This document shows positions 4,053 to 22,796 of a stretch of 64,000 bases of DNA, in pieces. The DNA comes from Nitrospirota bacterium (GTDB lineage Bacteria > Nitrospirota > JACRHL01). The stretch lies in the NCBI GenBank assembly GCA_016212085.1, contig JACRHL010000011.1:64161-128160 (forward strand), in the 5' to 3' direction. Position 1 is the stretch's first letter. Each line of letters starts with the position of its first letter. Position numbers and translations under genes: made by a program. The notes under the pieces were generated by a model, which saw only the letters and a program-made list of their open reading frames with translations, was not told the origin of the DNA and ran no database searches.

Positions 4053-5576
4053 CTATTCCGATGCCTTCGTGCCCACCAGGGCGCCGGAGCGGATCTCCGC
4101 GTCGCCGCGCGCCAGGTGCTGGATCTCGCCCGCCGCCACCCGGCTCGCGTAGTCGCGGAAGTAGGCGATCAGCCCCTTCTGGATGGACTCGTGGGCGAAC
4201 CGGTCCACCGGATCGATGCCCGCCCGGGTCAGCTCGCCCTTGGGGCATTCCCCGATGCGGGAGACGAACACGGCCGTACAGTCGCCGATGGCGCGGATCA
4301 CCGTTTCCAGGGTGTCCTCCTCGCCGTGGCCGCCCTGGCAGTACATGTCGACCCGGCGGTGGCCGACGAACTTGGCGCCGTCGCGGCTGACCTCGTAGAT
4401 CTGGAACTCGCGGGCGTGGCCGAAGTGCTCGTTGATGAGCCCCTCGCCCTTGGTGGCCACGGCGGCCAAAATGGATAGGGTGCCCGCCATCTCGGTGGTC
4501 ATCGCCTGGAGGGCGGCCAGCTCGTTTTCCTGCCCGGCGAACAGGGCGGCGCGCTGGGCCTCCACCATCTGTTGGTAGGCCTGGCGCTTCTCCAGGTCGT
4601 AGTTGACCTGCATCCGCTCGATCTTCTCCAGGGTGAACTCGTCGCTGCGGTCCTCCCCCAGCAGGCCCACGGCGTCGGCGCGGCACTGGCGGCAGTGGCG
4701 CATCATGTTCATCTCCCCCTCCTCGCACTGGTCCTGCAGGGCCTTCAGCTCCCTGGCGGTGGGGCCGCGCTGGCCGGTGAGGCCGTAGTGGGTGCCGTGC
4801 TCCGGGCTGGAGATGAGGGGCATGATGTTGTGCAAAAAGGCGCCGTTGCCCTTGACCACCCGGTTCACCTCCACTAGGTGCCGGTCGTTGACGCCGGGGA
4901 TCATGACCGAGTTGACCTTCACCAGGATGCCCCGCTCCACCAGCATCCCGAGGCCCTTCTGCTGCTGCGCGGAGAGGATGGCGGCGGCCTCCTCGCCGTG
5001 GCGGCGCTTGTTGTCCCAGAAGATCCAGGGGTAGATCTGGGCGCCCACCCTCGGGTCCACGTGGTTGATGGTGATGGTCACGTGGTCCACCCTGTAGGCG
5101 GCGATGGTGTCCACGAACTCCGGCAGGCGCAGGCCGTTGGTGGACAGGCACAGCTTGATGTCCGGCGCCTCGCGCTGGATCATCGCGAAGGTCCGGAAGG
5201 TCTTTTCCGGGTTGGCCAGGGCGTCGCCGGGGCCGGCGATGCCGAGCACGGTCATCTGCGGGATCTCGCTGGCCACCGCCAGCACCTTCCTGGATGCCTG
5301 CTCCGGGGTGAGCTTCTCGCTCACCACGCCGGGGCGGCTCTCGTTGGCGCAGTCGTACTTGCGGTTGCAGTAGTGGCACTGGATGTTGCAGGCGGGGGCC
5401 ACCGCCACGTGCATGCGGGCGTAGTGGTGGTGGGCCTCCTCGCTGTAGCACGGGTGATTTTTGACCTTCTCCCAGGTGGCGGGGTCCATGTCGGCGGGGC
5501 CCTTGGACGAGCCGCAGCTTCCCGATACCTCGCAGCCGCCGCCCTGGGGGGCGGTATTCAGCATGGGCAGTTCCAT
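4053..5576 (-). CDS. nifB: FeMo-cofactor biosynthesis radical-SAM protein NifB, with a C-terminal NifX-like domain
   Basis: 507 aa. Contains the radical SAM motif [14 protein letters not shown] and the NifB-typical [29 protein letters not shown]-terminal NifX/NafY-like domain is present. An AGGAGAA RBS precedes the start. Confidence 0.92.
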
Positions 5577-5923: not shown

Positions 5924-7252
5924 TTAGGAGTCATCCCCCGGCACACTTCCCGGAACCGGTTCCGGGCGGTGCGCGAGCAGGAGGTTGGCGGCGTCGAAGA
6001 TGAGGCGGGTGGCGCCCCGGTACCCCACGTTGAGCTGGTGGGCGGCGCCCAGCCGGTCGAAGTTGGGAATCCCCATCCGCATGAGCGGGATATCCAGCCG
6101 TTGCGCGGCCTGGCGGCCGTGGGAGTGGGTCACCAGCAGGTCGCACCCCCGTGCGGCGGCCTCCAGGTCCTCCAGGTCGCCGACGATCACCGTGTCCGCT
6201 GGGAGGGTTTCCAGGTTGGGCGCGGTGGCGGGGGCGACCGCGCAGGCCACGGTGGCGCCCATGCCCGTGAACAGGTCGGCCAGCGCCGCCAGCAGGTCGG
6301 CCTCGGCGCCGATGGCGATCCTGCGGCCGGCAAAATGGAAGTGGCCGTCCAGCATGGCGTCCTCCAGGCGGCTGCGCTGGCGGCGGACCTTGAGGGGCAC
6401 GTCCTCCATGCTGATCTCGTGCAGGAGCGCCACCAGGCGGTCCACCTCCTCCAGGCCCGAGAGGTGGTCGAACACCGTGTACGGCACGCCGTTGCGCTGG
6501 CACAGCACGTCCGCCGCGGGCTGCATGCTGCGCCCCACGGCGATGGTGTGCTCCGCGCTTCCCATGGCGCGGATGCGGGCCAGGGGGGTACCGCCCAGGG
6601 TGGTGGGCGAGAAGGTGTCCGGCACGTGGCCGTCCAGGGAGCCGGACAGGTCGGGCAGGATGGTGGGCACCAGGCCGAACGCCTCGATCAGCTCCCGGAT
6701 CTCCTCCACGTCTGCGGGGGTGAGGGAGGCGCCCGCCAGCACGTTCACGCGGCCCGACAGGAGGGCGGATTCCCCCTCCGCCAGCTCGCGCACCAGGGCG
6801 GTCACGGCCTTGCCGAAACCGTCCTGGAGCGAGCCGGAAAAATCGGGGGTGGCCACGGGCACGATGGCCACGTGGTTCATCTCCGGGTGCTTCCCGCGGA
6901 ACAGGCGGATCACCCCCTCGATGTCCTCGCCCTTGGTTTCCGTGAGGCCCGTGGTGGCCAGGCCGATGATCCGGGGGCGGGCCTTCTCGTAAATGGTCAG
7001 CAACGCCTGCTCGATGCTTTCCTCGCCGCCCAGGATGGTGGTCACCTCGTTCATGGCGGTGGTCTGCATGGGGATGCTCTCGCGGAAGTGGCGCACGAAC
7101 AGCACCAGCCCGAACGACGTGCAGCCCTGCGAGCCGTGCAGCACCGGCAGGCACTGGTCGAGCCCCAGGAACGCCAGGGCCGCGCCGATGGGCTGGCTCA
7201 TCTTGAGCGGGTTGACGGTGCAGGCCTTGCGGGGTTTGGTGATGAGGGTCAT
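5924..7252 (-). CDS. nifN: Nitrogenase MoFe cofactor biosynthesis protein NifN
   Basis: 442 aa with the N-terminus KACTVNPLKMSQPIGAALAFLGLDQCLPVLHGSQGC typical of NifN. It immediately follows nifE. Confidence 0.9.
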   Translation of the reverse strand: MTLITKPRKACTVNPLKMSQPIGAALAFLGLDQCLPVLHGSQGCTSFGLVLFVRHFRESIPMQTTAMNEVTTILGGEESIEQALLTIYEKARPRIIGLATTGLTETKGEDIEGVIRLFRGKHPEMNHVAIVPVATPDFSGSLQDGFGKAVTALVRELAEGESALLSGRVNVLAGASLTPADVEEIRELIEAFGLVPTILPDLSGSLDGHVPDTFSPTTLGGTPLARIRAMGSAEHTIAVGRSMQPAADVLCQRNGVPYTVFDHLSGLEEVDRLVALLHEISMEDVPLKVRRQRSRLEDAMLDGHFHFAGRRIAIGAEADLLAALADLFTGMGATVACAVAPATAPNLETLPADTVIVGDLEDLEAAARGCDLLVTHSHGRQAAQRLDIPLMRMGIPNFDRLGAAHQLNVGYRGATRLIFDAANLLLAHRPEPVPGSVPGDDS

Positions 7253-7261
7253 GGCGCCCCC

Positions 7262-8665
7262 CTATGCCGTCACGGTGGGCGCCGCGGCCGGTGCCACATG
7301 CCAGGGCGCGGGCTTCCTGAGGCGCGCCCAGACGGGGTTGTGGATGGCCTTGTCGATCCGGTCCACCAGGTTCACCATGCCGTCGTACCCCGCATAGGCG
7401 TGGTGGCGCTCCTGGTTGATGTCGAGGAACGGCACCTTGGCCTTCAGGGCCACGAACTGGGAGCGGCCGCCGGCCATGAGGATGTCGGCCTTGGCCTCGG
7501 CGAGCATGGCGTACATCTCGCGCGGGGTGATGGACTCGATCATGTGGGCGTCCTGCCCCATCAGCTCGACGATGCGGTGCTTGTCCTCCTGGGTGCTCTT
7601 CTTGACGCTGGTGCCCACCACCTCCATGCCCACCTCCTGGAGGGCGGACACCACGGACCAGCTCTTCACGCCGCCGGTGATGAGCAGCACGCGCTTGCCC
7701 GCCAGGCGCTCGCGGTAGGGCAGCAGGCGCTCCCAGGCGACGGCCTCCTGCTCGGCGATCAGGGCTTCCGTGCGGTCGAGCAATGCGGCGTGGGCACCCT
7801 GGCGGACCAGCAGCCCGGCGATCTGGCGCAGGGCGTCCGACATGTCGGAGATGCCGTAGAAGGAGCCCTCGAAGAACGGGATGCCGTAGCGCTCCTCCAT
7901 CTTGCGGGCGATGTTGATCATCGCCTTGGAGCACACCATCATGCTGGCCCTGGCCCGGTGCGACCAGGCCACCTCGCGGTAGCGCGCGTCGCCGGAGATG
8001 CAGGCGAGCAGGCGGATGCCCAGCCGGTCGAGGAGCGGCGTCACCTGCCACAGCTCGCCGGAGAGGTTGTACTCGCCGATGATGTTGATGTCGTGATCGG
8101 TGAGGTAGTCCGGCTCCTGGGTGCCGATCACGTGGTCCAGCAAGGCCTCCGCCGCCAGCTTGTTGCCCAGGTTCTTGCCCCCCACGAAGCCGGGGGCGTT
8201 GACCGGGATGACCGGCTTGCCGAACTGCTCCCTGGCGGCCTTGCACACCGCCTCCACGTCGTCGCCGGTGAGGGCGGGCACGCAGGTCTGGTAGACGAAC
8301 ACGGCGGGCGGGTCGTACTTGTCGAGGATCTCCCGGATCGCCCGGAACAGGCGTTTCTCGCCCCCCATGATGACGTCCTGCTCGTCCAGGTCGGTGGTGA
8401 AGCCGGTGCGGTAGAGCAGGGGGCCGGACGATGCGGCGCCGCGGTTGTCCCACGAGTTGCCCTCGCAGGCGATGGGGCCGTGCACCAGGTGGGCGGCGTC
8501 GACGATCGGCTGGAGGGCGATCTTGGCGCCGTCGAACGCGCAGCCGCCGGCCGCCGCGCCGGGCTGGGCGGACTTGGTGCAGCCCTTCTTGCGGTCCTTG
8601 TCCGACTTGTTCCGGTTGTGCTCGCAACCCGGTTCGTCGAGGACCTCGGCGACCTTCGTGATCAT
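7262..8665 (-). CDS. nifE: Nitrogenase MoFe cofactor biosynthesis protein NifE
   Basis: 467 aa from [20 protein letters not shown]...GCAFDGA...HGPIAC, a NifE/NifD-like fold. It lies upstream of nifN. Confidence 0.9.
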
Positions 8666-8812
8666 GTGTGCCTTGCCCCAAATAAAAAAGGAGGCCGAAC
8701 GCGCACATCGATGGGTGCGCATCCGGCCTCCAGTCGTCTGGTCAGCCTGTTGTTGCGTTCCGTGGAGACCGGTGCCCCCGGCGGGTCGCGCCGTCTCCTT
8801 GCCCGGAAGCTA

Positions 8813-8830
8813 CAGCATGGATCGTGCCAA
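8813..8830 (-). promoter_or_regulatory. sigma54 (-24/-12) promoter for the nifENWB...nifS operon
   Basis: Minus strand reads TTGGCACGATCCATGCTG. The GG-N10-GC spacing is correct. The -24 element TGGCACG is perfect and the -12 element is ATGCT (4/5). It lies about 150 nt upstream of the nifE start. Confidence 0.6.
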
Positions 8831-9038: not shown

Positions 9039-9058
9039 CTGGCACGCCGATTGCTGCA
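9039..9058 (+). promoter_or_regulatory. sigma54 promoter for the Cache-like/4TM gene
   Basis: CTGGCACGCCGATTGCTGCA matches -24 TGGCACG, then 4 nt, then -12 TTGCT, with GG-N10-GC spacing. It lies about 90 nt upstream of the ATG at 9145. Confidence 0.65.
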
Positions 9059-9144: not shown

Positions 9145-10173
9145 ATGCATGATCTTCACGCCCAGCTGTTCGAATACCGGGTCAACGCACTGCGCGAGAT
9201 CCGGCCCGCCTTGCGGAGCCTGGCGCGGGAGCTCACCGAGGCCACCCCGCAACAGATGGACGGGGTTCTTTGCGACCACCTGCGGGATCTGCCGTCCTGC
9301 GAGCTGCTCTACGTGCTGGACCGGGAGGGGCGGCAGGTCTCGTCGAACGTGCGCCGCCGGGCCTTTGGCTTCGGTATCGCCCTGGACCGGGGCGAGAAGA
9401 ACGTCTCCAGGGCCCACTGCCACTATTACAGGGACGCGGTGACCGCCCTGGAGTGCGTGATCACCGAGCCGTACCGCAGCAAGGCCACCGGCCACCCGGT
9501 GGTGACCGTCACCTATCCGGTGTCGGACGCGGCGGGCAGGCTGGTCATGGTGATCGCGGCGGACATCCGCGCGCGGGACCTGCTCTACCTGGTCACCTGC
9601 GGCAGCCGCCCGGCGGCGTTCCTCAAGCTCGGCCGGGGCATGTACCTGACCATCGCCCTGTTTCTGGGCGTCATCAGCACCGCCCTGCTGGGGCACGCGC
9701 TGGTGGAGTTGTGGGGGCTGGTCACCCACCTGGGGCGCGAGTTCGATCCGGACCGGCTGTTCCAGGCCACCATCATGGCCACCCTGTCCCTGGCGGTGTT
9801 CGACCTGGGGCGGACGGTGTTCGAGGAAGAGGTGCTGTTCATCCGTGACCCGCACAAGCCGGCGGCCATCCGCAAGGCGCTGTCGCGGTTCATGGGCTCC
9901 ATCATCATCGCCCTGGCCATCGAGGCGCTCCTGCTGGTGTTCAAGAGCACCATCAAGGACCCGTCCCTGTTCCCCAACGCGGTGGCGCTGATCGCGGCGG
10001 TCGGCTTCCTGCTGCTCACCCTGGGGGCCTACGTCTACCTGGGCAGCAGGGCCGAGGCGGCGGCTCCGGCGCGGCCCGGCCGGGAACACGAGCCGCCCGC
10101 CGGCGGGCCGCGCGGGACGGGCGACTCCGCCGGGTCGGCCACCGCCTTTGCCGGCAAGCGCCTCGGCCCCTGA
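9145..10173 (+). CDS. Membrane protein with an N-terminal cytoplasmic Cache/PAS-like sensor domain and a C-terminal 4-TM module; no output domain
   Basis: 342 aa. The Cache-like signature is EPYRSKATGHPVVTVTYPVSDAAGRLVMVIAADIRARDL. Four hydrophobic helices follow, containing AVFDLGRTVFEEEVLFIRD...RKALSRF...IALAIEALLLVF, and then a Pro/Gly/Ala-rich tail. Confidence 0.7.
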   Translation: MHDLHAQLFEYRVNALREIRPALRSLARELTEATPQQMDGVLCDHLRDLPSCELLYVLDREGRQVSSNVRRRAFGFGIALDRGEKNVSRAHCHYYRDAVTALECVITEPYRSKATGHPVVTVTYPVSDAAGRLVMVIAADIRARDLLYLVTCGSRPAAFLKLGRGMYLTIALFLGVISTALLGHALVELWGLVTHLGREFDPDRLFQATIMATLSLAVFDLGRTVFEEEVLFIRDPHKPAAIRKALSRFMGSIIIALAIEALLLVFKSTIKDPSLFPNAVALIAAVGFLLLTLGAYVYLGSRAEAAAPARPGREHEPPAGGPRGTGDSAGSATAFAGKRLGP

Positions 10174-10186
10174 CCGGGGCCGTCGC

Positions 10187-11851
10187 TCACGCCGGATAGG
10201 CCGGTGTGGTGCGCAGCCGCGTGTCCGGCACCGGGCCGCCCACGGTAAAATGGTACACGCTTTGCCAGGCGGTGCCGGTGATGCCGAACAGTTCGTGGAC
10301 CGGATCGTCCAGGTAACAGCCGATGCCCGTTCCCGCCAGCCCCCACGCCTCGGCCTCCAGGTACAGCAATTGGCCGATGGCACCGGCCTCCCAGAACAGG
10401 CGGCGGTAGGCCCAGGCGCCGTCCCGCTGGAGGGTGGACGCGAACTCCGCCAGCATGCCCAGGCTGAAGGCGCCCTGGGCGGCGATGTCCTGGTGGCAGC
10501 TCAGCGCCCGCGCGGCGCCGGTGGCGTTGCCCGCCATCAGGAGGCTCAGGTCCAGCCCGTCGGGGCAGCCCGGGGGGCGCTCCCAGGCGAATTCCGGGTG
10601 GCTCAATCCGGCGCGGAGCGCGGCCCCTCGCGCCGGGTCGCGGCACAGCACGTAAAGTCCGGGGGCGATGCCCACGACCCGGTGCACGAACAGCAGCAGG
10701 TGGATCGCCGGGGGCCACGCCATCGCCGCCAGGGCGGGCCCGCCATGCACCAGCCGCCCGAGGGTGGCAAACAAGGCGGCCGCGGGCATGGGGGTGACGC
10801 CATCCATGTCCACCGCGCTGCGCCGCCGCCGGACCAGGCGGCGCAGGGAGGGGGCCTCGCGCCGGGGGGACGCGGGCGCCGCCCACGGCGGCTCCGGCGC
10901 GGGCGCCAACCCGTTCCGAACCGGGGTGGCGGGCTTGACGGTGGCCTCGGCCACCCGGTCCATGTCGTCCCAGGGGACGTGGACCGGGCTCAGGGCGTTG
11001 GCCGTGCCGCGCCAGGGGCCGGCGGCCACGGCGCCGATGCCGTCCGCCCGCAACGATCCGGACGCGGGCGGCCCGCCGTCCGGGAACAGGCAGACGATCA
11101 CGTCCGGGTGCTCCGGTTCCGTCTCCCCATGGGCCGGCCCCGGCGGCCAGGGGAGCCCCAGCAGGGCCGCCACTTGCTCGTCTCCCAGATCGTCCAGTAT
11201 CCGCGCGCTCCAGCCGAGCCCGGCGGCGGCCACGGCCACGGCGGCGATGGCGTGGCCCACGTCGTGCTGGCAGTAGCGGAAGGCGCGCATGCCGTACTTC
11301 CAGGCCTCGCGCCAGTGGATGGACGCAAGGCCGACCAGCACCGCGTTCGGCTCCAGGTCTCCCGCCAGGGCCGCCCAGGTGGCGGCGTCGAGGCGGCGGC
11401 GCACCTCCAGGGCGTGGGGCTCCGGGGCGTAGTGGGCCACCATGCCGCCCGCGCACAGCCCCGCCACCGGGCCGCACACCAGATACCCTTCCGTGGGGTG
11501 CAGGTTGCCGCTGGACGGGTTCACCCGCAGGGCCCAGCGGCTGGGGCCCGCCTCCTTCCAGGCGGAAAGGGCCAGGCTGTCGTAGAACAGCCGGCCGATG
11601 GCGCGGCCGTCCAGCGCCGCCGGGGCAACGGGCGGCCCGGCAAACACCCGGTCGTAGGCCGGATCGGTGCCCACCGCAAGGGGCGCGTCGACGGGACAGC
11701 GCATCAGGGGCAGCAGCTCGGCCCCCGCATAGCGGCGGAAGGGATCGGGCCGGGAGGCCCAGTCCAGCCCCCGGGGGCCCGGCGCATAGCCGTCGAACCG
11801 GTGCTTGCTGGCGGCGTGATAGGCCATCACGGTATCGAGCGGGTCGGCCAT
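10187..11851 (-). CDS. SagB/ThcOx-type dehydrogenase (tandem nitroreductase-fold protein)
   Basis: 554 aa. The N-terminus MADPLDTVMAYHAASKHRF...LDWASRPDPFRRY is a SagB-type start. A second nitroreductase-like half follows (..HPEFAWERPPG..CYLDDPVHELFGI). No YcaO gene or precursor-peptide ORF lies nearby. Confidence 0.7.
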   Translation of the reverse strand: MADPLDTVMAYHAASKHRFDGYAPGPRGLDWASRPDPFRRYAGAELLPLMRCPVDAPLAVGTDPAYDRVFAGPPVAPAALDGRAIGRLFYDSLALSAWKEAGPSRWALRVNPSSGNLHPTEGYLVCGPVAGLCAGGMVAHYAPEPHALEVRRRLDAATWAALAGDLEPNAVLVGLASIHWREAWKYGMRAFRYCQHDVGHAIAAVAVAAAGLGWSARILDDLGDEQVAALLGLPWPPGPAHGETEPEHPDVIVCLFPDGGPPASGSLRADGIGAVAAGPWRGTANALSPVHVPWDDMDRVAEATVKPATPVRNGLAPAPEPPWAAPASPRREAPSLRRLVRRRRSAVDMDGVTPMPAAALFATLGRLVHGGPALAAMAWPPAIHLLLFVHRVVGIAPGLYVLCRDPARGAALRAGLSHPEFAWERPPGCPDGLDLSLLMAGNATGAARALSCHQDIAAQGAFSLGMLAEFASTLQRDGAWAYRRLFWEAGAIGQLLYLEAEAWGLAGTGIGCYLDDPVHELFGITGTAWQSVYHFTVGGPVPDTRLRTTPAYPA

Positions 11852-11891
11852 GGGGGCAGTGTACGCCCGCGTCCCCGCCCCGGACACCGCT

Positions 11892-12035
11892 GGGCACCTC
11901 TAATAACCTGCTGCGCGCCGCGATTGCTGCGTTGGGCGGTGCTCGAACCCTCTCCTATCACCATGATATGTCTCGGGTTCTGCGCTCCGTCCGCCTTGCA
12001 CTCACGCCGCTCGCGACGCTTATTAGAGGTGCCCC
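11892..12035. repeat. 144-bp MITE/REP-like intergenic element with 15-bp perfect terminal inverted repeats; contains copy A of a 3-copy motif
   Basis: GGGCACCTCTAATAA at 11892-11906 pairs with TTATTAGAGGTGCCC at 12021-12035. The right end carries CCTTGCACTCACGCCGCTCGCGACGCTTATTAGAGG, which recurs at about 17736 and, reverse-complemented, at about 60507. Confidence 0.6.
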
Positions 12036-12059
12036 GTCTTGTGGTGCGCTGGCGGCGAT

Positions 12060-12932
12060 TCAGCACATGGCCGCGATCAGGGAGCGGAACGCGTCGCCGT
12101 TCCCCTTGATGGGGCGCTTGACCGGGGGGCCGTCCGCCAGCGCCGGTTCCCGGTCCGCGTAGCTGGGCCGCTCCACCTGGTAGAACAGGCCGGTTGGAAG
12201 GCGCTCGGACTCGCCCGCCGCCCGCATCGCGGCGGCCAGGTCGGCCGGATCGTGCCCGGCCTCCTCCAGCTTGTAGACCCGCTCGCGGAAATAGGGGTAG
12301 GTGTTCAGGTGGTTGTAGGTGACGCACGGGGAGAACACGTCCACCAGGGCGAACCCCCGGTGCCGCATGCCCCCGGCGATGAGCCCGGCCATCTGGGCGA
12401 CATCGCCGGAGAAGCCCCGCGCCACGTAGCCGCAGCCGGCGGCCAGGGCCATGGCCAGGGGGTTCAGGGGAAGCTCCGGGTTGCCCCGGGGGGTGCTCTT
12501 GGTGACGACCTCCAGCCCGGTGGTGGGGGAGGCCTGGCCGGTGGTCAGCCCATACACCTGGTTGTTCATCACCACGTAGGTGAGGTTCAGGTTGCGGCGC
12601 ATGGCGTGCAGCATATGCCCCAGGCCGATGCCGTAGCCGTCGCCGTCACCCCCGGTGATGACCACCGTCAGGTCCGTGTTGGCCAGGTGCGCGCCGGTGG
12701 CCAGGGGTACCGCCCGGCCGTGCAGGCCGTGGACGCCGTAGGCGTGGATGAAGCCCGGCAGGTTGGAGGAGCAGCCGATGCCCGAGACCACCAGCATGTC
12801 GTCGGGGCGGATGCCCAGGCTCCCGGCCGCCTGCTTGAGCGCCTTCAGGACGCCGAAGTCGCCGCACGCGGGGCACCAGTCCGGGTCCACCGGGCCGTCG
12901 TAGGTTTCGATGGGCAGTTCAAGCGTGGCCAT
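12060..12932 (-). CDS. korB: 2-oxoacid:ferredoxin oxidoreductase beta subunit (TPP-binding), KorB-like
   Basis: 290 aa with CPGCGDFGVL...GIGCSS...GGDGDGYGIG, the TPP/FeS motifs of KorB/PorB. It overlaps the korA stop. Confidence 0.85.
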   Translation of the reverse strand: MATLELPIETYDGPVDPDWCPACGDFGVLKALKQAAGSLGIRPDDMLVVSGIGCSSNLPGFIHAYGVHGLHGRAVPLATGAHLANTDLTVVITGGDGDGYGIGLGHMLHAMRRNLNLTYVVMNNQVYGLTTGQASPTTGLEVVTKSTPRGNPELPLNPLAMALAAGCGYVARGFSGDVAQMAGLIAGGMRHRGFALVDVFSPCVTYNHLNTYPYFRERVYKLEEAGHDPADLAAAMRAAGESERLPTGLFYQVERPSYADREPALADGPPVKRPIKGNGDAFRSLIAAMC

Positions 12933-14928
12933 GGGCCGCCTCCTGGGTGCGGGGGATGGGGTGATGCAGGGCCAGCACCGCCCCGGTATCGGCGCCGATC
13001 ACCAGCAGCCCCATGTCGTGCCCGTCGTCGCGGCCCTCCAGGCGCGCCTCCCAGGCGGGCTCGCCATACACATGCTCGCCCACCCGGCGCAGCGTCGCGG
13101 GCCAGGCCATGTCGCCCAGCCGGCTGCGGATGTAGTGGTACGCGCACTCACGGGCCTCGCCCTCCGAAAGGGCCAGGGGCTGGCTGCGGCCCGTCAGGAC
13201 GGCCTGCGCCCGCTCGGCGATGTAGCCGGGGGTGAACGGCTCGCCGTCGTAGCGGAGCACCAGGCCGTGCGCCCGGTGGCCGGTCTCGGCCCGCAGGTAG
13301 CGGGCAAACTGACCGGTCAGGTTGTTCTCCACCACCACGGTGCGGCGGGCGGTGTCGATGGCCTCCAGCATGGCACCGGTGGGGAACGGCAGCAGGTACT
13401 TCACCTGCATCTGGCCGGCCACCACGCCCCGCTCCGAGAGCAGGTCCACCGCCTCGCGGATGACGCCGCCGGTGGACCCCCAGCCGATGAGCAGGACCTC
13501 CGGCCGCGAGGCGCCGTAGCGCTCCGGCGGCGGGAGCTGGGCCGCCACGGCCTCCAGCTTGCGCATCCGCTTTTCGTGCATCTTGCGGCGCATGGGGGGG
13601 CTCGCGAACACGTCCGACAGCAGGATTCCCGCCTCGTCATGCTCGTCCGACGCGGCGATGTGCGCCGCCCGCGGGGTGCCGGGCAGGGCCCTGGGCGAGA
13701 CGCCCGATGGGGTCAGCCGGTAGCGCAGGTAGCCGTCCGCCTCGGCGACGTCGTCCACCCGTTCGCCCCGGTCGATGGGCATATCCCAGTCCAGGTCCGT
13801 GTGCTCCACCGTCTCGTAATGCTCCGCCAGCGCCAGGTCGGACATCACGATCACCGGCATCTGGAACCGCTCCGCCAGGTTGAATGCCTCCGCCACGGAG
13901 CCGAAGGCGTCCGCCGTGTCCACGGGGGCCAGGATCGCACGGGGATAGTCGCCCTGGGAGGCCCCGAACACCTGGTTCAGGTCGCCCTGCTCGGTCTTGG
14001 TGGGCACACCGGTGGAGGGGCCCGCGCGCTGCCCCTCCACGATCACCACCGGCGCCTCGATCATGCCGGCGAAACCCACCGCCTCGCTCATCAGGGCAAA
14101 GCCGCCGCCGGAGGTGGCGCACATGGCGCGCACCCCGGCATACCCCGCGCCGATGGCGGTGTGGATCACGGCGATCTCGTCCTCGCACTGCTTGACCACC
14201 ATGCCGAAATCCGGGCCGTGGGCCGCCAGGTAGTGGAGGATGTTGGAGACGGGGGTCATCGGGTAGGCCGCGTAGAACTTGCAGCCCGCCGCCAGGGCGC
14301 CCAGGGCCATGGCCTGGTTGCCGGTGAGGAAGGGGCGCGCCGTGCGCGAAAAGGCCCAGCCGGTGTTCAGCGCGGCGGTGTGTTGCCGGGCGTGGGCGTG
14401 ACCGGCGCGGGTGGCGTCGACGTTGTGCGCGATGACCTCCACGGGCTTGCCCGCGTAGATGTCGCCAGTCACCCCTTCCAGCACCGCCGGGTCAAGGCCC
14501 AGCAAGTGGGCGGCGGCCCCCACCAGCACACTGTTTTGCATGACCGGGGGCACCTTGCCCAGGGGCTTGAGCAACTCCTTGACCGGCATCCCCAGCAGGT
14601 TGACATCCTTGCCCGGCAGCCGCTCGGGGCAGGTGAGACGGTCGGCCGCGTACACGATCCAGCCCCCCGCTTCCACCTGGGGGGCGTGGCGTTCGAGGGT
14701 GTCCTGGTTGAGGGCGATGAGCAGGTTCAGGTGGTCGCCGTGGGAGCGCACCTTGTCCTCGCCCATGCGCAGGGTGAGCCAGATGTGCCCCCCCCGGATC
14801 ACCGACTGGTAGCTGTTGTAGGCGTAGGCGTGAAGCCCCAGACGGGTGCCCGTCCGCGCGAGGATGTCGCCGCAGCGGGCGAGCCCGTCTCCCGCCGCAC
14901 CGCCGATTCCGATGCTGAGTGCGCCCAT
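12919..14928 (-). CDS. korA: 2-oxoacid (2-oxoglutarate):ferredoxin oxidoreductase alpha subunit, KorA-like
   Basis: 669 aa from MGALSIGIGGAAGDG. The chosen start is the ATG 5 nt after a GGAGG RBS; the upstream GTG abuts the RBS. A gamma-like N-terminal domain is fused to the alpha domain (YPMTPVSNILHYLA). Confidence 0.85.
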   Translation of the reverse strand: MGALSIGIGGAAGDGLARCGDILARTGTRLGLHAYAYNSYQSVIRGGHIWLTLRMGEDKVRSHGDHLNLLIALNQDTLERHAPQVEAGGWIVYAADRLTCPERLPGKDVNLLGMPVKELLKPLGKVPPVMQNSVLVGAAAHLLGLDPAVLEGVTGDIYAGKPVEVIAHNVDATRAGHAHARQHTAALNTGWAFSRTARPFLTGNQAMALGALAAGCKFYAAYPMTPVSNILHYLAAHGPDFGMVVKQCEDEIAVIHTAIGAGYAGVRAMCATSGGGFALMSEAVGFAGMIEAPVVIVEGQRAGPSTGVPTKTEQGDLNQVFGASQGDYPRAILAPVDTADAFGSVAEAFNLAERFQMPVIVMSDLALAEHYETVEHTDLDWDMPIDRGERVDDVAEADGYLRYRLTPSGVSPRALPGTPRAAHIAASDEHDEAGILLSDVFASPPMRRKMHEKRMRKLEAVAAQLPPPERYGASRPEVLLIGWGSTGGVIREAVDLLSERGVVAGQMQVKYLLPFPTGAMLEAIDTARRTVVVENNLTGQFARYLRAETGHRAHGLVLRYDGEPFTPGYIAERAQAVLTGRSQPLALSEGEARECAYHYIRSRLGDMAWPATLRRVGEHVYGEPAWEARLEGRDDGHDMGLLVIGADTGAVLALHHPIPRTQEAAHGHA

Positions 14929-15153
14929 CGTCACCTCCGTGTCGAAAGCGTGGGCATGTATTACTGGGGCACACTTCGAACGTACACCCGTGGCGGCCGC
15001 TGCGCCAGCCGGTAATGCCCTGATTTAATTCGATGTGGCGGTTGCGCAGCGCCCTGTTTGGCGCCACTGTTAAGCAAGGCCCCAAGCGGATGAATCCCCT
15101 GGGCGAGTGGGGATGGGGTTGTTTTCCCACTCCCCAACGCGTGGAGAGACACC

Positions 15154-15465
15154 ATGGCATATGTGGTCACCGAGAACTGTCGGGGTTGCCGCTACACCGA
15201 CTGCGTAACGGTCTGCCCGGTGGAGTGCTTCTGGGGCGACGGGGAGATGCTGTACATCGACCCGGAAACCTGCATCGATTGCGGCGCCTGCATCCCCGAG
15301 TGCCCGGTGGAGGCCATCTTTGCGGACGACGAAGTGCCCGCCGGCCAGGAGGAATGGATCGGGATCAACGCCGAGCGCTGTGCCAGCGGGGAGCTGGTGA
15401 ACGTCACCGCGAAGGCGGCCGCCCTCGCCGGTGCCGACGCGCGCAAGGCCGCCCTCGGTTTCTAG
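15154..15465 (+). CDS. fdxA: 7Fe ([3Fe-4S][4Fe-4S]) ferredoxin, Azotobacter FdxA type
   Basis: 103 aa, [27 protein letters not shown]...[17 protein letters not shown], the FdxA cysteine pattern. Confidence 0.85.
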
Positions 15466-15492
15466 GCTGAGGGTCGCCCCCGCGCCCCGGCG

Positions 15493-15975
15493 TCATAACG
15501 ACGGGCGTTCGGCCTCGGGAATGGTCAACGCCAGTTCGAGCCGCTTGATCTCGTCCAGGTGGCCCTGCTCCAGGCGCGACAGATCCTCGAAAAAGGCCCG
15601 CATGGACGGATCGTCCGTTTCCGTGGCCAGGTCGCGGTAACTGTCGCGGGCCTCGGCCTCGCGCCGCCGGGCGAGCTTCAGGATCTCCTTGCTGTCGCCC
15701 TTGCGCACCGTCTTCTCGTCCTCCGGAGAGATCACGCCGGAGACCCGCTCTTCCAGTTTCTCCACGTAGGCGAACGCGTCGAAATCCAGGTTGAGCGGTG
15801 GTTCCGACACGCGGCGGGCCAGATCCCGCGCGTGGTCCACCTCCAGGTCGGCCAGTTCCATGAACAGGACGCGGGAGTCGTCCCGGTCGGTCAGTGTCGT
15901 GGCCAGGCGGTAAAAGGCGCGCGACTTGACCTCGCTCAACAGCGCCCGCTTGACGGTTTTGATGGATGTTGCCAT
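15493..15975 (-). CDS. Ferritin-like diiron-carboxylate protein (rubrerythrin/bacterioferritin-like four-helix bundle)
   Basis: 160 aa with two ExxH motifs (LEVDHARDL and LEQGHLDE), each preceded by a Glu-containing helix. About 65% identical to the C-terminal half of the ORF at 16486-17439. Confidence 0.65.
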   Translation of the reverse strand: MATSIKTVKRALLSEVKSRAFYRLATTLTDRDDSRVLFMELADLEVDHARDLARRVSEPPLNLDFDAFAYVEKLEERVSGVISPEDEKTVRKGDSKEILKLARRREAEARDSYRDLATETDDPSMRAFFEDLSRLEQGHLDEIKRLELALTIPEAERPSL

Positions 15976-16001
15976 GGTGCCCTCCTGTTGCCGGGGTGCC
16001 G

Positions 16002-16027
16002 CCCGGCGCGCACGAGGCCGCGCCGGG
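16002..16027. other. Perfect 9-bp stem-loop between the Rieske and ferritin-like genes (CCCGGCGCG-N8-CGCGCCGGG)
   Basis: Read directly from the sequence. There is no downstream T-run, so this may be an mRNA processing or attenuation structure rather than an intrinsic terminator. Confidence 0.4.
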
Positions 16028-16041
16028 AGCCGGCGGCCGGC

Positions 16042-16350
16042 TTACACCTCGATTTCAATTTCCTCCCCGGTGACGCGGACGTTGTAGCGCGTCACGTCCT
16101 CCCCCGCCGGCGGCATGGTGACCTCCCCGGAGGCGATGGTGAAATGGGCGCCGTGCCAGGGACACACCACCTCGTCCCCCTGGATGAGCCCCTCGGACAG
16201 CGGCCCCCCCATGTGGGTGCAGGCGTCGTCGATGGCGAAGAACGTGCCACCCAGGTTGAACAGCGCGATGCGCCTGGCCCCCACCCGCACGCATTTCGCG
16301 CCCTGGTCGGGTATTTCCATCTTCTTGGCGATGGCGATGAATTGCGACAT
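16042..16350 (-). CDS. Small Rieske [2Fe-2S] ferredoxin-like protein
   Basis: 103 aa from MSQFIAIAKKMEIP. The Rieske ligands are CTHMGGPLSEG and CPWHGAHF. A GGAGG RBS lies before the ATG. Confidence 0.8.
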   Translation of the reverse strand: MSQFIAIAKKMEIPDQGAKCVRVGARRIALFNLGGTFFAIDDACTHMGGPLSEGLIQGDEVVCPWHGAHFTIASGEVTMPPAGEDVTRYNVRVTGEEIEIEV

Positions 16351-16485
16351 GGCGATAGCCTCCTTGCGCCATGGCAGCCGCGCCCTCCCGTCGGGATGCC
16401 GTCCTGATTTGACTATATGCCCCCCACCGGCGCTGCGCCAGGAAGGGGGGGGCACATGGGCGGGCAACCGCCCCCGGCCGCGCCG

Positions 16486-17439
16486 TCACGCGGCCGGGGG
16501 CGCCGCGTCGGCCGTCCCGAGGTGTGCTTCCAGCCGCCGGAGCCCTTCGAGATGGGCCTGTTCGGTGCGGGAGAGCTCCTCGCAGAACGCCCGCATCAGC
16601 GGATCGTCCGCCTCCTGCGCCAGCTCCCGGTAATTGTCCCGCGCCTCCGCCTCGCGGCGCTTGGCCAGCTTCAACACGGCCCTGGGGTCCCCCTCGCGCA
16701 CGGTTTTTTCGTCCTGCGGCGCCAGGGTGCCGGAGATCTGTTTCTCCCACTTGCTCACGTAAGCGAACGGGTCGAAATCCAGGTTGAGCGGCGGCCTGGA
16801 GGCGCGCTCGGCGAGTTCGCGTGCGTGGCCCACCTCCAGCGCGGCCAGGTCCAGGAACAGGGCGCGGGAGTCGTCCCGGTTCGTCAGATCGGCGGCCAGG
16901 CGGTAGAAGGCCCGCGACTTGATTTCGCTCAGCAGTGCGCTCTTGATGGTTTTGGCGGGGGTGAGCGCGGAGGTCTCGGTGCTGTTCTCGGCGTGGGCGC
17001 TGAGCCGCTGGAAGGCGCCCAGGCACACCACGCCCAGGCTGGCGACGGCGAGCAGCAGCGTGGGGTAGATGATCTGCGCCATCTCCTGCGTGGCCGCGCT
17101 GAAGATGAACACCAGCGCCTCCAGGTAGGCGGCGATGGTCACGATCACCAGGAACTTGGTGAGGGTCTTGCGGGCCTCGGCGGAGGAGCGCAGTTCCCGG
17201 TTGCGCAAGACCTCCTCCTCGATCAGGTATTTGCTCACGTCGAACACCGCCACGGCGACGACGATGAGGCCGATGGCGTCCAGCATCCGGGGCACCGCCT
17301 CGGTGCTGGAGTGGAACGCCAGCCACACGTCCCAGCCGCCGGCGCCGATCATGGCAAGGCTGATCAGCAGCAGCGAGGTGCTCGCCGTGATGTACATGAT
17401 GTGGGTGACGAGGGTGTGTAGGCGGTTCTGGTTCCTCAT
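16486..17439 (-). CDS. Membrane-anchored ferritin-like diiron protein: an N-terminal 4-TM module fused to a ferritin-like domain
   Basis: 317 aa from MRNQNRLHTLVTHIMYITAST. The TM module (AVFDVSKYLIEEEVLRNRE...RKTLTKF...IAAYLEALVFIF) is homologous to the C-terminal module of the 9145-10173 protein. The C-terminal about 160 aa is a paralog of the ORF at 15493-15975. Confidence 0.65.
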   Translation of the reverse strand: MRNQNRLHTLVTHIMYITASTSLLLISLAMIGAGGWDVWLAFHSSTEAVPRMLDAIGLIVVAVAVFDVSKYLIEEEVLRNRELRSSAEARKTLTKFLVIVTIAAYLEALVFIFSAATQEMAQIIYPTLLLAVASLGVVCLGAFQRLSAHAENSTETSALTPAKTIKSALLSEIKSRAFYRLAADLTNRDDSRALFLDLAALEVGHARELAERASRPPLNLDFDPFAYVSKWEKQISGTLAPQDEKTVREGDPRAVLKLAKRREAEARDNYRELAQEADDPLMRAFCEELSRTEQAHLEGLRRLEAHLGTADAAPPAA

Positions 17440-17735
17440 CGCTCGATGTTTGTTGGGGGTGGGGGCATTCCGGCCGTCTCGCCAATCATGGCACCTGGCG
17501 GCCGCCTGCGAAAGGGCGGGGTAATACTCCCGTTGCAACCGCGGCGGGTGGCGCCCCGGTGTCGCGAAAACCCGGCCGATGTCATAATGAAAACATCGGG
17601 TTGGCTTCGCATCCGGAGAGGCAAAACGATTCCAGCCAACCCCCTGGAGGGTCGTCCGCCCCGGCCACCCCCGCTTCCAGCGGGCGGTTCGGAATGGACG
17701 GATTCCGCGCGGCGTAACGGTGCCGCTCCGCTCGG

Positions 17736-21257: not shown

Positions 21258-22796
21258 ATGCCTTTCTTGCGCCCGTCCGCCGCCCTGTCCCTCATCGCAG
21301 CTTGCCTGCTGCTGTTCATTGGCGGCACCTCCCACGCCCACACATTGCACGTCACCGACGACGCGTCGTCGGATCGGTCGGCGCATTCAAGACTGTCCGG
21401 CGACGGTGGCGACATGGTGTTGCGCGCCGCCGCCGTGCCTGATCGCGACGGGGAGGACCGCGACCGCCGTGGCCGGGACCATGGGGACGATGACGACCAC
21501 GACACCGCTGGCGCCGCGTTGGCGCTGGCCCGCTTTGACCTGTCGACGCTGGCCGCCGGCGCCGATATCGAGAAGGCCACGCTGCGCCTGTGGGTAACCC
21601 GGGTTGCCCACCCCGGCACCGTGCACGTGCGGCTGATGCTGGACGGGTGGTCGGAACGCGACCGCTACCTGCGGGCGGAAATGGACCCGGTGCCGGTGCG
21701 GTCGTTCGCCGTTTACGCGGATGACGGCGGGCGCACCCTGACCGTCGATATCACCGACGCCGTGCGTCTCTGGCGCGCGGGCGTCCTTCCCAACCACGGC
21801 CTGGCGCTGACCACGGATGATGCCAGCCTGTGGCTGGCCAGCAAGGAAAACACCGCCACCTCCCACGCCGCCGAGGTGGAGGTGGCGCTGGCGCCAACGC
21901 GGGCACTGGCGGATTCCGGCGGCTCACCCGGCTCCACCGGGCCGCAAGGCCCCACCGGTCCGCAAGGCCCGGCGGGCGTGCCGGGTGACCCCGGCCCCGC
22001 CGGCCCGCAAGGCCCCACCGGTCCGCAAGGCCTGGCGGGCGCGCCGGGTGACCCCGGTCCCGCCGGCCCGCAAGGCCTCACCGGTCCGCAAGGCCTGGCG
22101 GGCGCGCCGGGTGACCCCGGCACCGCCGGTCCGCAAGGTCCCGCCGGTCCGCAAGGCTTGGCGGGCGTGCAGGGCGACCCCGGCCCCGCCGGCCCGCAAG
22201 GCCCCGCCGGTCCGCAAGGCCTCACCGGTCCGCAAGGCCCGGCGGGCGCGCCGGGGGCGACAGGCCCGGTTGGGCCACAGGGGCTCACGGGGCCGCAGGG
22301 CCCTCCCGGCCCCGGCGGGTTGTCCGGCGTGGTGATCGGCCCGCACCTGGTCAGCGTCACGACGCCGGACGCGGTCACCCTGGACGTTGCCGGGATGCCG
22401 GGCGTGGCGTTCGGGGCCGCCTACCTGGCGAGCCCGTACATCCTCACCACCACGTGGCGCGACCCGCTCACCCTGGCCATGGACGTGCCGGCGGACGGGG
22501 TGATTCTGATCCAGTACACCCTGACCTGCGAGCTGGTGTCGGCGGGCGCGCCGGCCGCGCTGGCGAGCGGGTTTGTCAGCAACCTGCCGGTGCAGCTCAT
22601 CCCATCGGCGGACCCGGGCACGTTCCATTGCACCACCGGACCGTCGCCGCAGACGGACGTCATGCGCCAGAAGCTGTTCCCGGTGCAGAAGGGGGTGAAC
22701 AACTTCTACCTGCGCGCCGCCATGCAGACACCCACCGGCCTGGGCATGTTGCGCAACATCACCATGTCGGGCATGTATTTCCCGGCCACCTACTGA
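21258..22796 (+). CDS. Secreted collagen-like protein: signal peptide, an N-terminal beta-rich domain that may be DNRLRE/CBM96-like, about 45 Gly-X-Y triplets, and a C-terminal globular domain
   Basis: 512 aa. [29 protein letters not shown] looks like a signal peptide. [16 protein letters not shown] resembles a DNRLRE-like pattern. A long uninterrupted [19 protein letters not shown]... run follows. The roughly 150-aa C-terminal domain ends ...YFPATY. Confidence 0.75.
21918..22330 (+). repeat. Tandem 63-bp (21-codon) repeats encoding the collagen-like region (about 4.5 near-identical units, with 9-bp sub-periodicity)
   Basis: The unit ggccccaccggtccgcaaggcc(c/t)ggcgggcg(t/c)gccgggtgaccccgg(c/t)cccgccggcccgcaa recurs with only a few substitutions. 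Confidence 0.8.

Follow-up and report, generated by a model that had tools for sequence, protein, structure and literature searches.

The window analysed here, a 64,000-nucleotide stretch of a Nitrospirota contig, encodes two proteins that carry one homologous membrane module of four transmembrane (TM) helices, joined to two unrelated cytoplasmic domains: a PDC/Cache-like sensor domain in protein A and an erythrin-type di-iron domain in protein B. This was the central reading of a first-pass annotation made from the sequence letters, and it is supported. The module is a conserved four-helix membrane domain with no function assigned, uncatalogued yet widespread, and the two fusions lie beside a nitrogen-fixation cluster. 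The best explanation as a whole, which combines two ancient paralogous modules, the architectures of A and B, and an ion- or metal-related mechanism, is held with slightly better than even confidence.

Homology and family of the membrane module

As judged from sequence, the C-terminal ~150 aa of A are homologous to the N-terminal ~150 aa of B. Residues 166-304 of A align with residues 15-151 of B at 32% identity over 141 aa, and under the composition correction that had been posed beforehand as the test of this similarity it stays significant (BLASTP with compositional adjustment, E=6e-17). The claimed alignment of the two protein ends is likewise borne out by reciprocal HMMs and shuffled controls. 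An HMM of free-standing members only matches A at aa 162-306 (E=1.5e-24), and an HMM of PglG-like proteins only, built without A and without its 76%-identical orthologue, matches B at residues 7-153 (E=2.9e-25). Aligned with each other, the two modules reach 63.5 bits; 200 block-wise shuffles in which the composition of TM segments and loops was kept gave 11.9 +/- 5.4, with a maximum of 24.6. Nothing in the results speaks against the homology or the family assignment. The shared motifs first noticed by eye, AVFD..K...EEEVL and ..IEAL..VF, turned out to mark the region of highest conservation in the module family.

The window holds two copies of the module only, those in A and B, and they are ancient paralogues belonging to different subfamilies; recent local recombination is not their origin. 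The B module is 50-62% identical to free-standing forms, while the A module is 30-40% identical to PglG-like forms. The earlier picture of a mobile, recombined module is thus partly right: two distinct fusions exist, but the module is usually free-standing and the window copies are old paralogues.

Among 1.84 billion representative sequences, the family comprises 761 clusters at 50% identity (E<=1e-3). Its usual state is a free-standing protein of ~155 aa (mostly 150-200 aa), and the best 120 module matches are all 146-205 aa long. The module is predicted to have four TM helices, with both termini and the long charged TM2-TM3 loop in the cytoplasm; the placement of the C-terminus follows from the positive-inside rule, as K+R counts are higher in loop 2 (5.3) and the C-tail (2.3) than in loop 1 (1.0) and loop 3 (0.8). 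The AF2 model of the B module (pLDDT 85.9) displays four long helices, and those of the A module span residues 156-194, 202-230, 239-270 and 273-306. Five residues (D67, E75, F96, A103 and E107 in B numbering) are invariant in all 87 aligned sequences. As to placement, an Asp lies where TM2 nears the cytoplasm, an EEE cluster follows shortly after it, and a Glu sits halfway through the membrane in TM3; all of these carboxylates are invariant or nearly so across the family. No conserved gene neighbours were found at 46 free-standing loci, and neighbouring genes vary at 80 PglG-like loci, so genomic context offers no functional handle.

Scans of A, B, free-standing and PglG-like members gave no Pfam or NCBIfam match to the module, and no PDB relative was found by sequence or by fold. 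No curated family model covers it, in agreement with the initial view that this is not a recognised named family. Pfam, NCBIfam, the PDB, PsiE and YqhA all failed to provide a link, and the module could not be mapped with confidence onto any characterised family.

Protein A, the PglG-like proteins and the sigma-54 context

Protein A is a 342-aa protein (ORF 9145..10173, plus strand) made up of a PDC/Cache-like sensor domain (aa 1-152; 9145..9600), the 4-TM module (aa 156-306; 9610..10062, delimited by BLASTP, HMM and AF2 helices) and a low-complexity tail. A MAG protein on record at NCBI matches it with 100% identity, and the AF2 model of the whole of A has a pLDDT of 83.8. The N-terminal domain matches Pfam dCache_1 (E=1.7e-5) and also MCP-like_PDC_1; in Foldseek the model matches the KinD sensor 4jgo (E=1e-6) as well as the Tlp3 and YkuI sensors, and a PDB profile search returns PDC domains only, with KinD at E=4.8e-12. 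As neither a signal peptide nor a TM segment precedes it, the PDC domain is predicted to be cytoplasmic. Pfam and NCBIfam scans recognised no output domain in A. The first description of A, a cytoplasmic Cache/PAS-like fold followed by the module and lacking an output domain, therefore holds, the PDC/Cache fold being given by dCache_1 and Foldseek.

By its sequence, A belongs over its full length to an existing family, PglG or 'PDC sensor domain-containing protein', rather than being an orphan. Its full-length homologues are ~300 aa long with scores down to E=1e-43, aa 25-305 of A match a PglG-only HMM from which A was left out (E=8.8e-78), and the alignment of A with the family (A3) has 33 invariant columns that span both domains. 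Every one of 44 family members matches dCache_1 and MCP-like_PDC_1, and 18 of the 44 match YkuI_C. UniRef labels these proteins either as 'PDC sensor domain-containing' or as 'general glycosylation pathway protein'. The homologue from Campylobacter troglodytis lies directly after pglA/C/D/E/F-like genes, between the pglF-like gene and cheY-prmA-ftsH (locus L061). Campylobacter pglG is in this way a synteny-confirmed homologue of A, an assignment that goes through the C. troglodytis position and the UniRef names rather than through alignment with the C. jejuni sequence. The pgl locus corresponds to Cj1119c-Cj1130c (PMC1899501), and PglG is a named protein whose function is not known (PMC11389370); the family name therefore yields no mechanism for A. 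Location in a pgl cluster is also not family-wide, since only 9 of the 80 homologous loci have a pglF-like gene directly upstream (10 have one nearby).

A sigma-54 type -24/-12 promoter, TGGCACGCCGATTGCT (9040..9055, plus strand), lies 90 nt upstream of the ATG of A and matches exactly the consensus scored here, TGGCAC-N5-TTGCW (-24 GG / -12 GC). The same consensus scan places a sigma-54-like site with one mismatch, TGGCACGATCCATGCT (8814..8829, minus strand), upstream of the divergent nifE; nifE, nifN and nifB were identified next to A from ORFs and Pfam. The locus of the 76%-identical orthologue (L096) has an equivalent site upstream of the gene, at its positions 1220-1234. Of the loci scored, 13 are non-Campylobacterota, and 10 of these have a site with 0-1 mismatch just upstream of the gene; none of the 64 others does. 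The ten bearing it are mostly from Acidithiobacillus or related MAGs, and many adjoin prkA and amt; of all 80 PglG-like loci, 9 have a divergent prkA, 7 an amt gene and 7 a DUF2126 gene. The prkA homologue yeaG is activated by NtrC in E. coli (bioRxiv 10.1101/254623). The non-Campylobacterota group includes the closest homologues of A. The NifA-type motif TGT-N10-ACA has no exact copy in the A-nifE intergenic region, its sole copy in the window being at 17580-17595. In assigning A its own sigma-54 promoter in a nitrogen-fixation context, the first-pass annotation was correct about the promoter, which is present and conserved, but the adjacency to nifE is not shared by the 76%-identical orthologue; a nitrogen/sigma-54 regulatory context is consequently better supported than a specific nif linkage.

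Protein B and the Rieske-erythrin unit

Protein B is a 317-aa protein (ORF 16486..17439, minus strand) in which the 4-TM module is in frame with an erythrin-type di-iron domain. The module occupies aa 1-155 (16975..17439) and is of the free-standing subfamily type by identity, AF2 and HMM; the erythrin/ferritin-like domain occupies aa ~164-306 (16522..16950). The start ATG at 17439 is backed by independent gene calls and by an aligned upstream ATG in an 82%-identical orthologue. Pfam Rubrerythrin (PF02915) matches aa 165-303 above its cut-off of 22.8 bits (35.6 bits, E=1.4e-8); the scan used a 350-aa form of the protein, in which the match is numbered 198-336. The candidate di-iron ligands, read from the translation, are E172, E202-x-x-H205, E263/E265 and E293-x-x-H296. 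A rubrerythrin/ferritin-like domain with two ExxH motifs, as first proposed, is accordingly confirmed by a match above the cut-off and by the motifs themselves. Among solved sequences, the erythrin domains come closest only to a DPS-like protein (8w1d, E=1.6e-4) and to an encapsulated ferritin.

Two further genes follow B on the minus strand. Immediately downstream is a 102-aa Rieske [2Fe-2S] ferredoxin (16042..16350; Pfam Rieske E=3.7e-17, with a supporting gene call), and the third gene of the unit encodes a stand-alone erythrin of 160 aa (15493..15975; Pfam Rubrerythrin E=4.2e-10, 40.6 bits). The erythrin domain of B is 67.6% identical to this neighbour over 148 aa, and it was recently duplicated from the neighbouring gene. 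The gene order B-Rieske-erythrin, with B first, is conserved in the orthologous locus L093; a GltD-like oxidoreductase adjoins the unit there. Only two clusters of module-erythrin fusions were found, and B is a rare, lineage-specific fusion of a free-standing-type module to an erythrin domain.

Possible function of the module and comparison with known systems

The likeliest reading of the module is that it may act as an autonomous ion- or metal-handling membrane unit, regulated or fed by the cytoplasmic domains. Its strong conservation as a stand-alone protein and its invariant intramembrane carboxylates suggest that it would most likely be self-sufficient, probably oligomeric, and able to bind or conduct ions or metal cations rather than serve as a passive anchor, a proposal made with low confidence. 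The same caution applies to both fusions. In A, binding of a ligand to the cytoplasmic PDC domain might modulate the module at times of nitrogen limitation, under sigma-54 control. For B, the module could hold a di-iron oxidase or ferroxidase at the membrane, where it would be reduced via the Rieske ferredoxin; by analogy, B may be functionally comparable to the membrane-bound ferritin MbfA, with a putative role in iron or oxygen/peroxide handling beside genes for nitrogenase-cofactor assembly. The invariant acidic residues could alternatively serve in helix packing or partner binding.

A distinctly less probable, though serious, alternative is that the module is a membrane tether or oligomerisation scaffold without transport activity, which would place the PDC sensor and the erythrin at the inner membrane face. 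Its cytoplasmic loop would dock a putative partner for signal relay, and the free-standing forms would be adaptor subunits of other membrane complexes. As A has no recognisable output domain, its signal must be passed on either by contact with another protein or via the membrane part; the juxtamembrane cytoplasmic FD..K...EEEVL together with the start of TM3, where conservation of the module peaks, is a possible docking surface, and no transporter fold was detected for the module. However, the free-standing proteins are 50-60% identical across orders and have nothing to anchor, a passive anchor would not usually keep a mid-membrane Glu and a TM Asp unchanged in 87 of 87 sequences, and neither the 46 free-standing nor the 80 PglG-like loci hold a conserved partner gene.

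It is improbable that the module is a very divergent form of UPF0114/YqhA (TIGR00645) or of PsiE, in which case the finding would reduce to a known family. These are, like the module, small 4-TM inner-membrane proteins of similar length and unassigned function, and they share its layout of TM1-short loop-TM2-long charged loop-TM3-short loop-TM4. One PglG-like protein is named 'YqhA' by JGI, PF03350 matches 3 of 44 PglG-like proteins (all at E>=0.57), and the best hhalign alignment to YqhA, while non-significant, is co-linear on TM3-TM4. Equal size and helix-loop layout are nevertheless unaccompanied by significant sequence or profile similarity. Comparison of the module alignments A1 and A2 with a YqhA alignment of 10 sequences gives an hhalign probability of 0.3% (E about 0.2), and A2 against E. 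coli PsiE gives 0.1% (E=0.55), the latter with the limited sensitivity of a single PsiE sequence. Neither TIGR00645 nor PF03350 matches A, B or the free-standing members (17 in A1) at E<=1 to 10, PsiE (PF06146) is absent among the Pfam families listed for A and B and among the best 25 listed for the module alignments, and the YqhA alignment contains no counterparts of the invariant D67, EEE and E107.

Least credible of all is that B arose as an assembly or frameshift artefact from a free-standing module gene and an adjacent erythrin gene: its close module homologues (the best 120 matches) all stand alone, the linker between the homology regions is about 8 residues only, and another apparent module fusion (P0399, with META) resembles a read-through artefact, but the reading frame of B runs through the junction without a stop codon and without an ATG, GTG or TTG for a second gene, the identical 317-aa product is found in two Logan contigs (one from run SRR12113396) and an NCBI record, and the orthologue with 82% identity, which comes from a JGI metagenome unrelated to this one, is an uninterrupted fusion of matching architecture.

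In comparison with known systems, A aligns end to end with the ~300-aa family of PglG (Cj1119c of the C. jejuni pgl locus). Common to both are an N-terminal PDC/Cache domain, where DPYxS is among the shared motifs, and a C-terminal 4-TM module that carries FDLxKTxFEEEVL, IEALxLVFK and I.IA...E.L. Unlike PglG, A lies outside any glycosylation locus, between nifENB and SagB-like/OFOR genes; it is 30-40% identical to other members and adds a low-complexity tail of ~35 aa.

The C-terminal domain of B and its 160-aa neighbour resemble rubrerythrin/erythrin (PF02915) in keeping the series E, ExxH, E, ExxH. They differ from rubrerythrin in lacking the rubredoxin domain, and the B copy is tethered to the membrane through the module. 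A parallel in layout is with MbfA, an erythrin fused to a VIT1 iron exporter (NCBIfam NF045676), which, as B does, carries a cytoplasmic erythrin and a small polytopic membrane domain on a single chain. NF045676 matches B at 28 bits against a cut-off of 450 (E=1e-6) and in the erythrin part only, both erythrin domains of the unit matching it weakly. The membrane parts themselves differ: where MbfA has VIT1 (PF01988), B has the four helices of the module, and neither B nor 17 module sequences match VIT1 at E<=10. The domain order is also reversed relative to MbfA, as in B the membrane part is N-terminal.

Two proteins with a common membrane domain

Proteins A and B are encoded in a window of about 70% G+C, and both have 100% identical counterparts in an NCBI metagenome-assembled genome that carries the label 'Nitrospirae bacterium'. 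Protein A (9145-10173, +; 342 aa), a PDC/Cache-like domain followed by a four-helix membrane module, is divergent from nifE (7262-8722, -), after which come nifN (5924-7252) and a nifB-like radical-SAM/NifX gene (4053-5576). Protein B (16486-17439, -; 317 aa) carries the module at its N-terminus, ahead of an erythrin domain, and on the same strand lie a Rieske ferredoxin gene (16042-16350) and a gene for a 160-aa erythrin (15493-15975). The latter is separated by a ferredoxin gene on the + strand from a 2-oxoacid:ferredoxin oxidoreductase beta/alpha pair (12060-14934, -). Downstream of A, a SagB-type nitroreductase-family gene (10187-11887, -) encodes a 566-aa protein that scores over the TIGR03605 cut-off and converges on A with a gap of 13 nt, an arrangement kept in all four short contigs carrying A. 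An ORF with collagen triple-helix repeats at 21258-22796 (+; Pfam Collagen, E=4.5e-20) may be a spurious frame, given its overlap with other long ORFs.

Residues 166-304 of A align with residues 15-151 of B at 32% identity (BLASTP with compositional adjustment, E=6e-17). An HMM built from free-standing homologues only, which are proteins of about 155 aa consisting of the module, finds residues 162-306 of A at E=1.5e-24; one built from PglG-like proteins only (PDC-module proteins of about 300 aa, with A and its 76% orthologue left out of the build) finds residues 7-153 of B at E=2.9e-25. Cross-matching between these subfamilies covers 118/118 PglG-like and 119/119 free-standing proteins. The real pair of modules scores 63.5 bits, compared to 11.9 +/- 5.4 bits (maximum 24.6) for shuffles in which the module of A was permuted inside 12-residue blocks, preserving the TM/loop pattern. 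Chance or compositional similarity of TM segments is ruled out by the adjusted BLASTP, the reciprocal independent HMMs and the block shuffles; the likeness claimed in the first-pass annotation is borne out and, on these alignments, is one of homology and not of hydrophobic composition. These two copies are the only ones in the window. The evolutionary and architectural statements made here on the module, A and B carry high confidence.

The module is modeled as four long helices with a mean pLDDT of 85.9 (AlphaFold2, 87-sequence alignment). Lysine plus arginine average 5.3 residues in the TM2-TM3 loop, 2.3 in the C-tail and 1.0 and 0.8 in the remaining two loops, and hydropathy together with the positive-inside rule predicts that the N-terminus, the TM2-TM3 loop and the C-terminus are cytoplasmic. 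With this topology the erythrin domain of B would be cytoplasmic, and so would the PDC domain of A, which has no signal peptide or TM segment ahead of it. Ten columns are invariant over both subfamilies (Y16, L23, A64, D67, E75, F96, A103, E107, L109 and L140 in the numbering of B), and K70, E74, E76, V77, T92 and I100 are nearly so. The resulting signature has two parts. TM2 bears an Asp that lies a few residues in from its cytoplasmic end and, on its helical extension, a Lys followed by an EEE cluster; TM3 bears a mid-helix Glu on an otherwise invariant face (F96, I100, A103, E107).

No Pfam-A or NCBIfam match to the module was found at E up to 10 in A, B, 17 module sequences or 44 PglG-like proteins, the TM matches in those scans being at chance level and mutually inconsistent (DUF5362, Rv2743c, Bestrophin-like and MntP (2/17)). 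As one homologue is labelled 'YqhA' in a JGI record and PsiE is of similar size, hhalign was run against E. coli psiE, E. coli yqhA and a 10-member YqhA (TIGR00645) alignment from plasmid records; probabilities of at most 1% (E 0.06-0.55) reject kinship with PsiE and YqhA/UPF0114. The first-pass annotation did not recognize the module as a named family, and Pfam-A, NCBIfam and hhalign agree in placing it outside characterized families. It is an undescribed domain family of which PglG is the only named member.

The domain is mostly found alone. A query with the module of B returned 511 proteins, the best 120 of which are all 146-205 aa long and 49-66% identical, many of them belonging to purple sulfur bacteria or to further Gammaproteobacteria. 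When 1.84 billion cluster representatives were searched exhaustively with a profile, 761 clusters, defined at 50% identity, were recovered at E<=1e-3, of which 125 reach E<=1e-30, and the great majority are of 150-200 aa; the longer entries inspected were mostly mis-called starts or charged tails. A metagenome protein joining the module to a META domain (P0399, 310 aa, ENA) was set aside as a third architecture, its linker containing a stretch that resembles the lipoprotein-type signal peptide of a second gene, and is probably a read-through or frameshift artefact. Across 46 loci, free-standing module genes have no conserved neighbour, and none has an erythrin or Rieske gene nearby; gene context thus gives no functional clue. 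In Thiorhodovibrio (L001, 6434-8465), a free-standing module gene begins 4 nt behind a same-strand BCCT-family transporter gene, an arrangement suggestive of an operon; none of the other free-standing loci examined showed it. Azotobacter vinelandii also has a copy (chromosomal loci L091/L092, 8001-8639), which adjoins terC and is found about 1 kb downstream of two regulatory genes, one of the GAF + sigma-54-activator type and one ModE-like; its product is annotated as 212 aa, probably with a spurious N-terminal extension.

The PglG-like group and its sigma-54 sites

Protein A aligns end to end with the PglG family (E down to 1e-43, 30-40% identity), whose hosts are Campylobacterota, Acidithiobacillus, Sulfurihydrogenibium and assorted MAGs, and whose members are labelled 'PDC sensor domain-containing protein' or, in UniRef, 'general glycosylation pathway protein'. 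The full-length AlphaFold2 model of A (pLDDT 83.8) has a PDC fold at residues 1-152 and then four helices, and Foldseek matched it to the sensor domains of KinD, Tlp3 and YkuI. The homologue in C. troglodytis sits where pglG (Cj1119c) is located in C. jejuni. In the latter species, the pgl genes extend over Cj1119c-Cj1130c (PMC1899501). Synteny among 80 PglG-like loci is only lineage-specific: a pglF-like gene is just upstream in only 9, with 10 loci having one in the vicinity, and the neighbours in the remainder are hisH/hisA, psd, a HAD phosphatase and prkA/amt/DUF2126, and also cheY-prmA-ftsH. With pglF-like genes in so few loci and such varied neighbours elsewhere, the 'glycosylation' name reflects local synteny and not function. 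Campylobacter pglG is shown to be one fusion form of the module and is not specific to glycosylation.

An exact sigma-54 consensus, TGGCACGCCGATTGCT, is present at 9040-9055, 90 nt upstream of A, and on the opposite strand TGGCACGATCCATGCT lies upstream of nifE. At L096, the locus of the 76% orthologue of A, which is not beside nifE, TGGCACGGCAATTGC lies 84-98 nt upstream of the orthologue in a spacer that is otherwise poorly conserved. The divergent neighbour there begins with a GAF domain (2-904, -; cut by the contig end), has its own exact sigma-54 site, TGGCACACCCGTTGC, at 983-997 (-), and may be an activator of the NifA/NtrC type.

A sigma-54 motif (0-1 mismatch) just upstream of the PglG-like gene was found in 10 of the 77 genome loci scored, these 10 being related loci and not independent events. 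All fall within a 13-locus non-Campylobacterota group (Acidithiobacillus and 'Nitrospirae'/'Proteobacteria' MAGs) that contains the closest homologues of A, and the motif is absent just upstream in all 64 other scored loci. As the N5 spacers vary among loci, the hexamers are maintained and not merely inherited; judged by these motifs, control by sigma-54 is conserved in the group to which the closest homologues of A belong. The non-Campylobacterota loci further have sigma-54-like sites toward a divergent prkA (9 loci) and amt nearby (7 loci). In the Acidithiobacillus-type loci L019, L026, L058, L063, L070, L074, L075, L082 and L087, the two extra sites facing prkA, e.g. TGGCACGCTTCCTGC and TGGCACAGGAAATGC, lie about 100-450 nt upstream of the PglG-like gene on the opposite strand. 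Other exact sigma-54 sites occur several kb off, and the surroundings resemble a dense sigma-54 regulon island, with amt and a DUF2126/transglutaminase gene among its members.

In nitrogen-starved E. coli, yeaG, a prkA homologue, is activated by NtrC (bioRxiv 10.1101/254623). Together with the conserved sigma-54 sites and prkA/amt, this precedent supports a nitrogen context for A in the sense of sigma-54 and nitrogen stress. The first-pass annotation had placed A in a nitrogen-fixation regulatory context; taken as a whole, its observation of the module was correct and its interpretation largely so, but the nif adjacency is lineage-specific, as none of the 80 PglG-like loci is linked to nif. 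The spacer between A and nifE contains no exact NifA-type TGT-N10-ACA.

Protein B and its gene unit

An artefactual origin of B, the alternative to a true joining of the module to a ferritin-like domain, is ruled out. The two domains share one reading frame, with neither a stop codon nor an alternative start at the junction; the 317-aa product was called in two Logan contigs and is on the NCBI record; and the 82% orthologue, which comes from an unrelated JGI metagenome, is fused in the same way. B is, on this evidence from reading frames and an orthologue, a rare and real fusion, as first proposed; two fusion clusters only were found among 8000 word-sharing candidates scored. Its module is of the free-standing type. 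The 67.6% identity over 148 aa between its erythrin domain and the erythrin encoded two genes downstream argues for a recent duplication and a subsequent fusion.

Both erythrin domains score above the Pfam Rubrerythrin threshold and retain the E/ExxH/E/ExxH ligands; they show weak matches to the MbfA model, in its erythrin part, and to an NCBIfam model for GltD-ferritin fusion proteins. The B-Rieske-erythrin unit is kept in the orthologous contig L093, where a divergent gene upstream of it (1-984, -) encodes a GltD-like Fe-S flavoprotein (Fer4_20 + Pyr_redox_2); this gene and the GltD-ferritin model hint at an electron path from NAD(P)H through Rieske to the di-iron centre.

A sigma-54 promoter or NifA site for B was considered and rejected, the candidate being an unconvincing, weak GG-N10-GC directly abutting a single TGT-N10-ACA. 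This TGT-N10-ACA, at 17580-17595 and about 140 nt upstream of the ATG of B, is the sole exact one in the 64-kb window, against a chance expectation of about 5. A block upstream of B (17480-17535, -) is conserved in L093 (1200-1290) despite divergent flanks; it reads GGGAGT[A/T]TT..CTTTCGCA[G/A]GC[G/A]GCCG..GGTGCCA[T/G]GATTG..ACGG, is not compatible with a sigma-54 promoter, and could act as promoter or operator of the B-Rieske-erythrin unit.

Possible function of the module

A stand-alone protein of 155 aa that is still 50-60% identical across orders must have a function in its own right. Carboxylates that are invariant and lie within the membrane, combined with a cytoplasmic EEE cluster, are a typical mark of small oligomeric proteins that conduct ions or are coupled to them. 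The stand-alone conservation, the intramembrane carboxylates and the EEE cluster favour the module being an autonomous cation- or proton-handling unit, which in PglG-type proteins would be regulated by the cytoplasmic PDC sensor and in B would be coupled to a di-iron centre reduced by the Rieske protein, in analogy to MbfA though not through homology. A role as scaffold or relay is the main rival and would leave a useful domain definition of modest interest. A transport mechanism, as suggested by the residue pattern, is itself a proposal of low confidence.

What is new is the undescribed domain family, the erythrin fusion and the sigma-54 association of one family group; a discrete, widespread membrane domain, missing from curated libraries, is defined by a sharp invariant Asp/EEE/Glu signature. 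Three handles are gained: free-standing forms in tractable bacteria (e.g. A. vinelandii), the link of the group of A to sigma-54 and nitrogen stress, and a natural di-iron fusion whose conserved operon also encodes a Rieske ferredoxin. Were the module an ion or metal conduit, it would represent a new small-transporter family and a second membrane-bound ferritin architecture. In its fullest form, which is improbable as a whole, the module would be a hitherto unrecognized family of small, probably oligomeric, cation/metal channel or transporter subunits built on the TM2 Asp, the EEE cluster and the TM3 Glu, and the PglG types would be PDC-gated pores induced by sigma-54 under nitrogen limitation. 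B would then be an independent second 'membrane-bound ferritin' of the MbfA type, its Rieske-reduced di-iron centre coupled to the pore, managing iron and oxygen next to nitrogenase-cofactor assembly.
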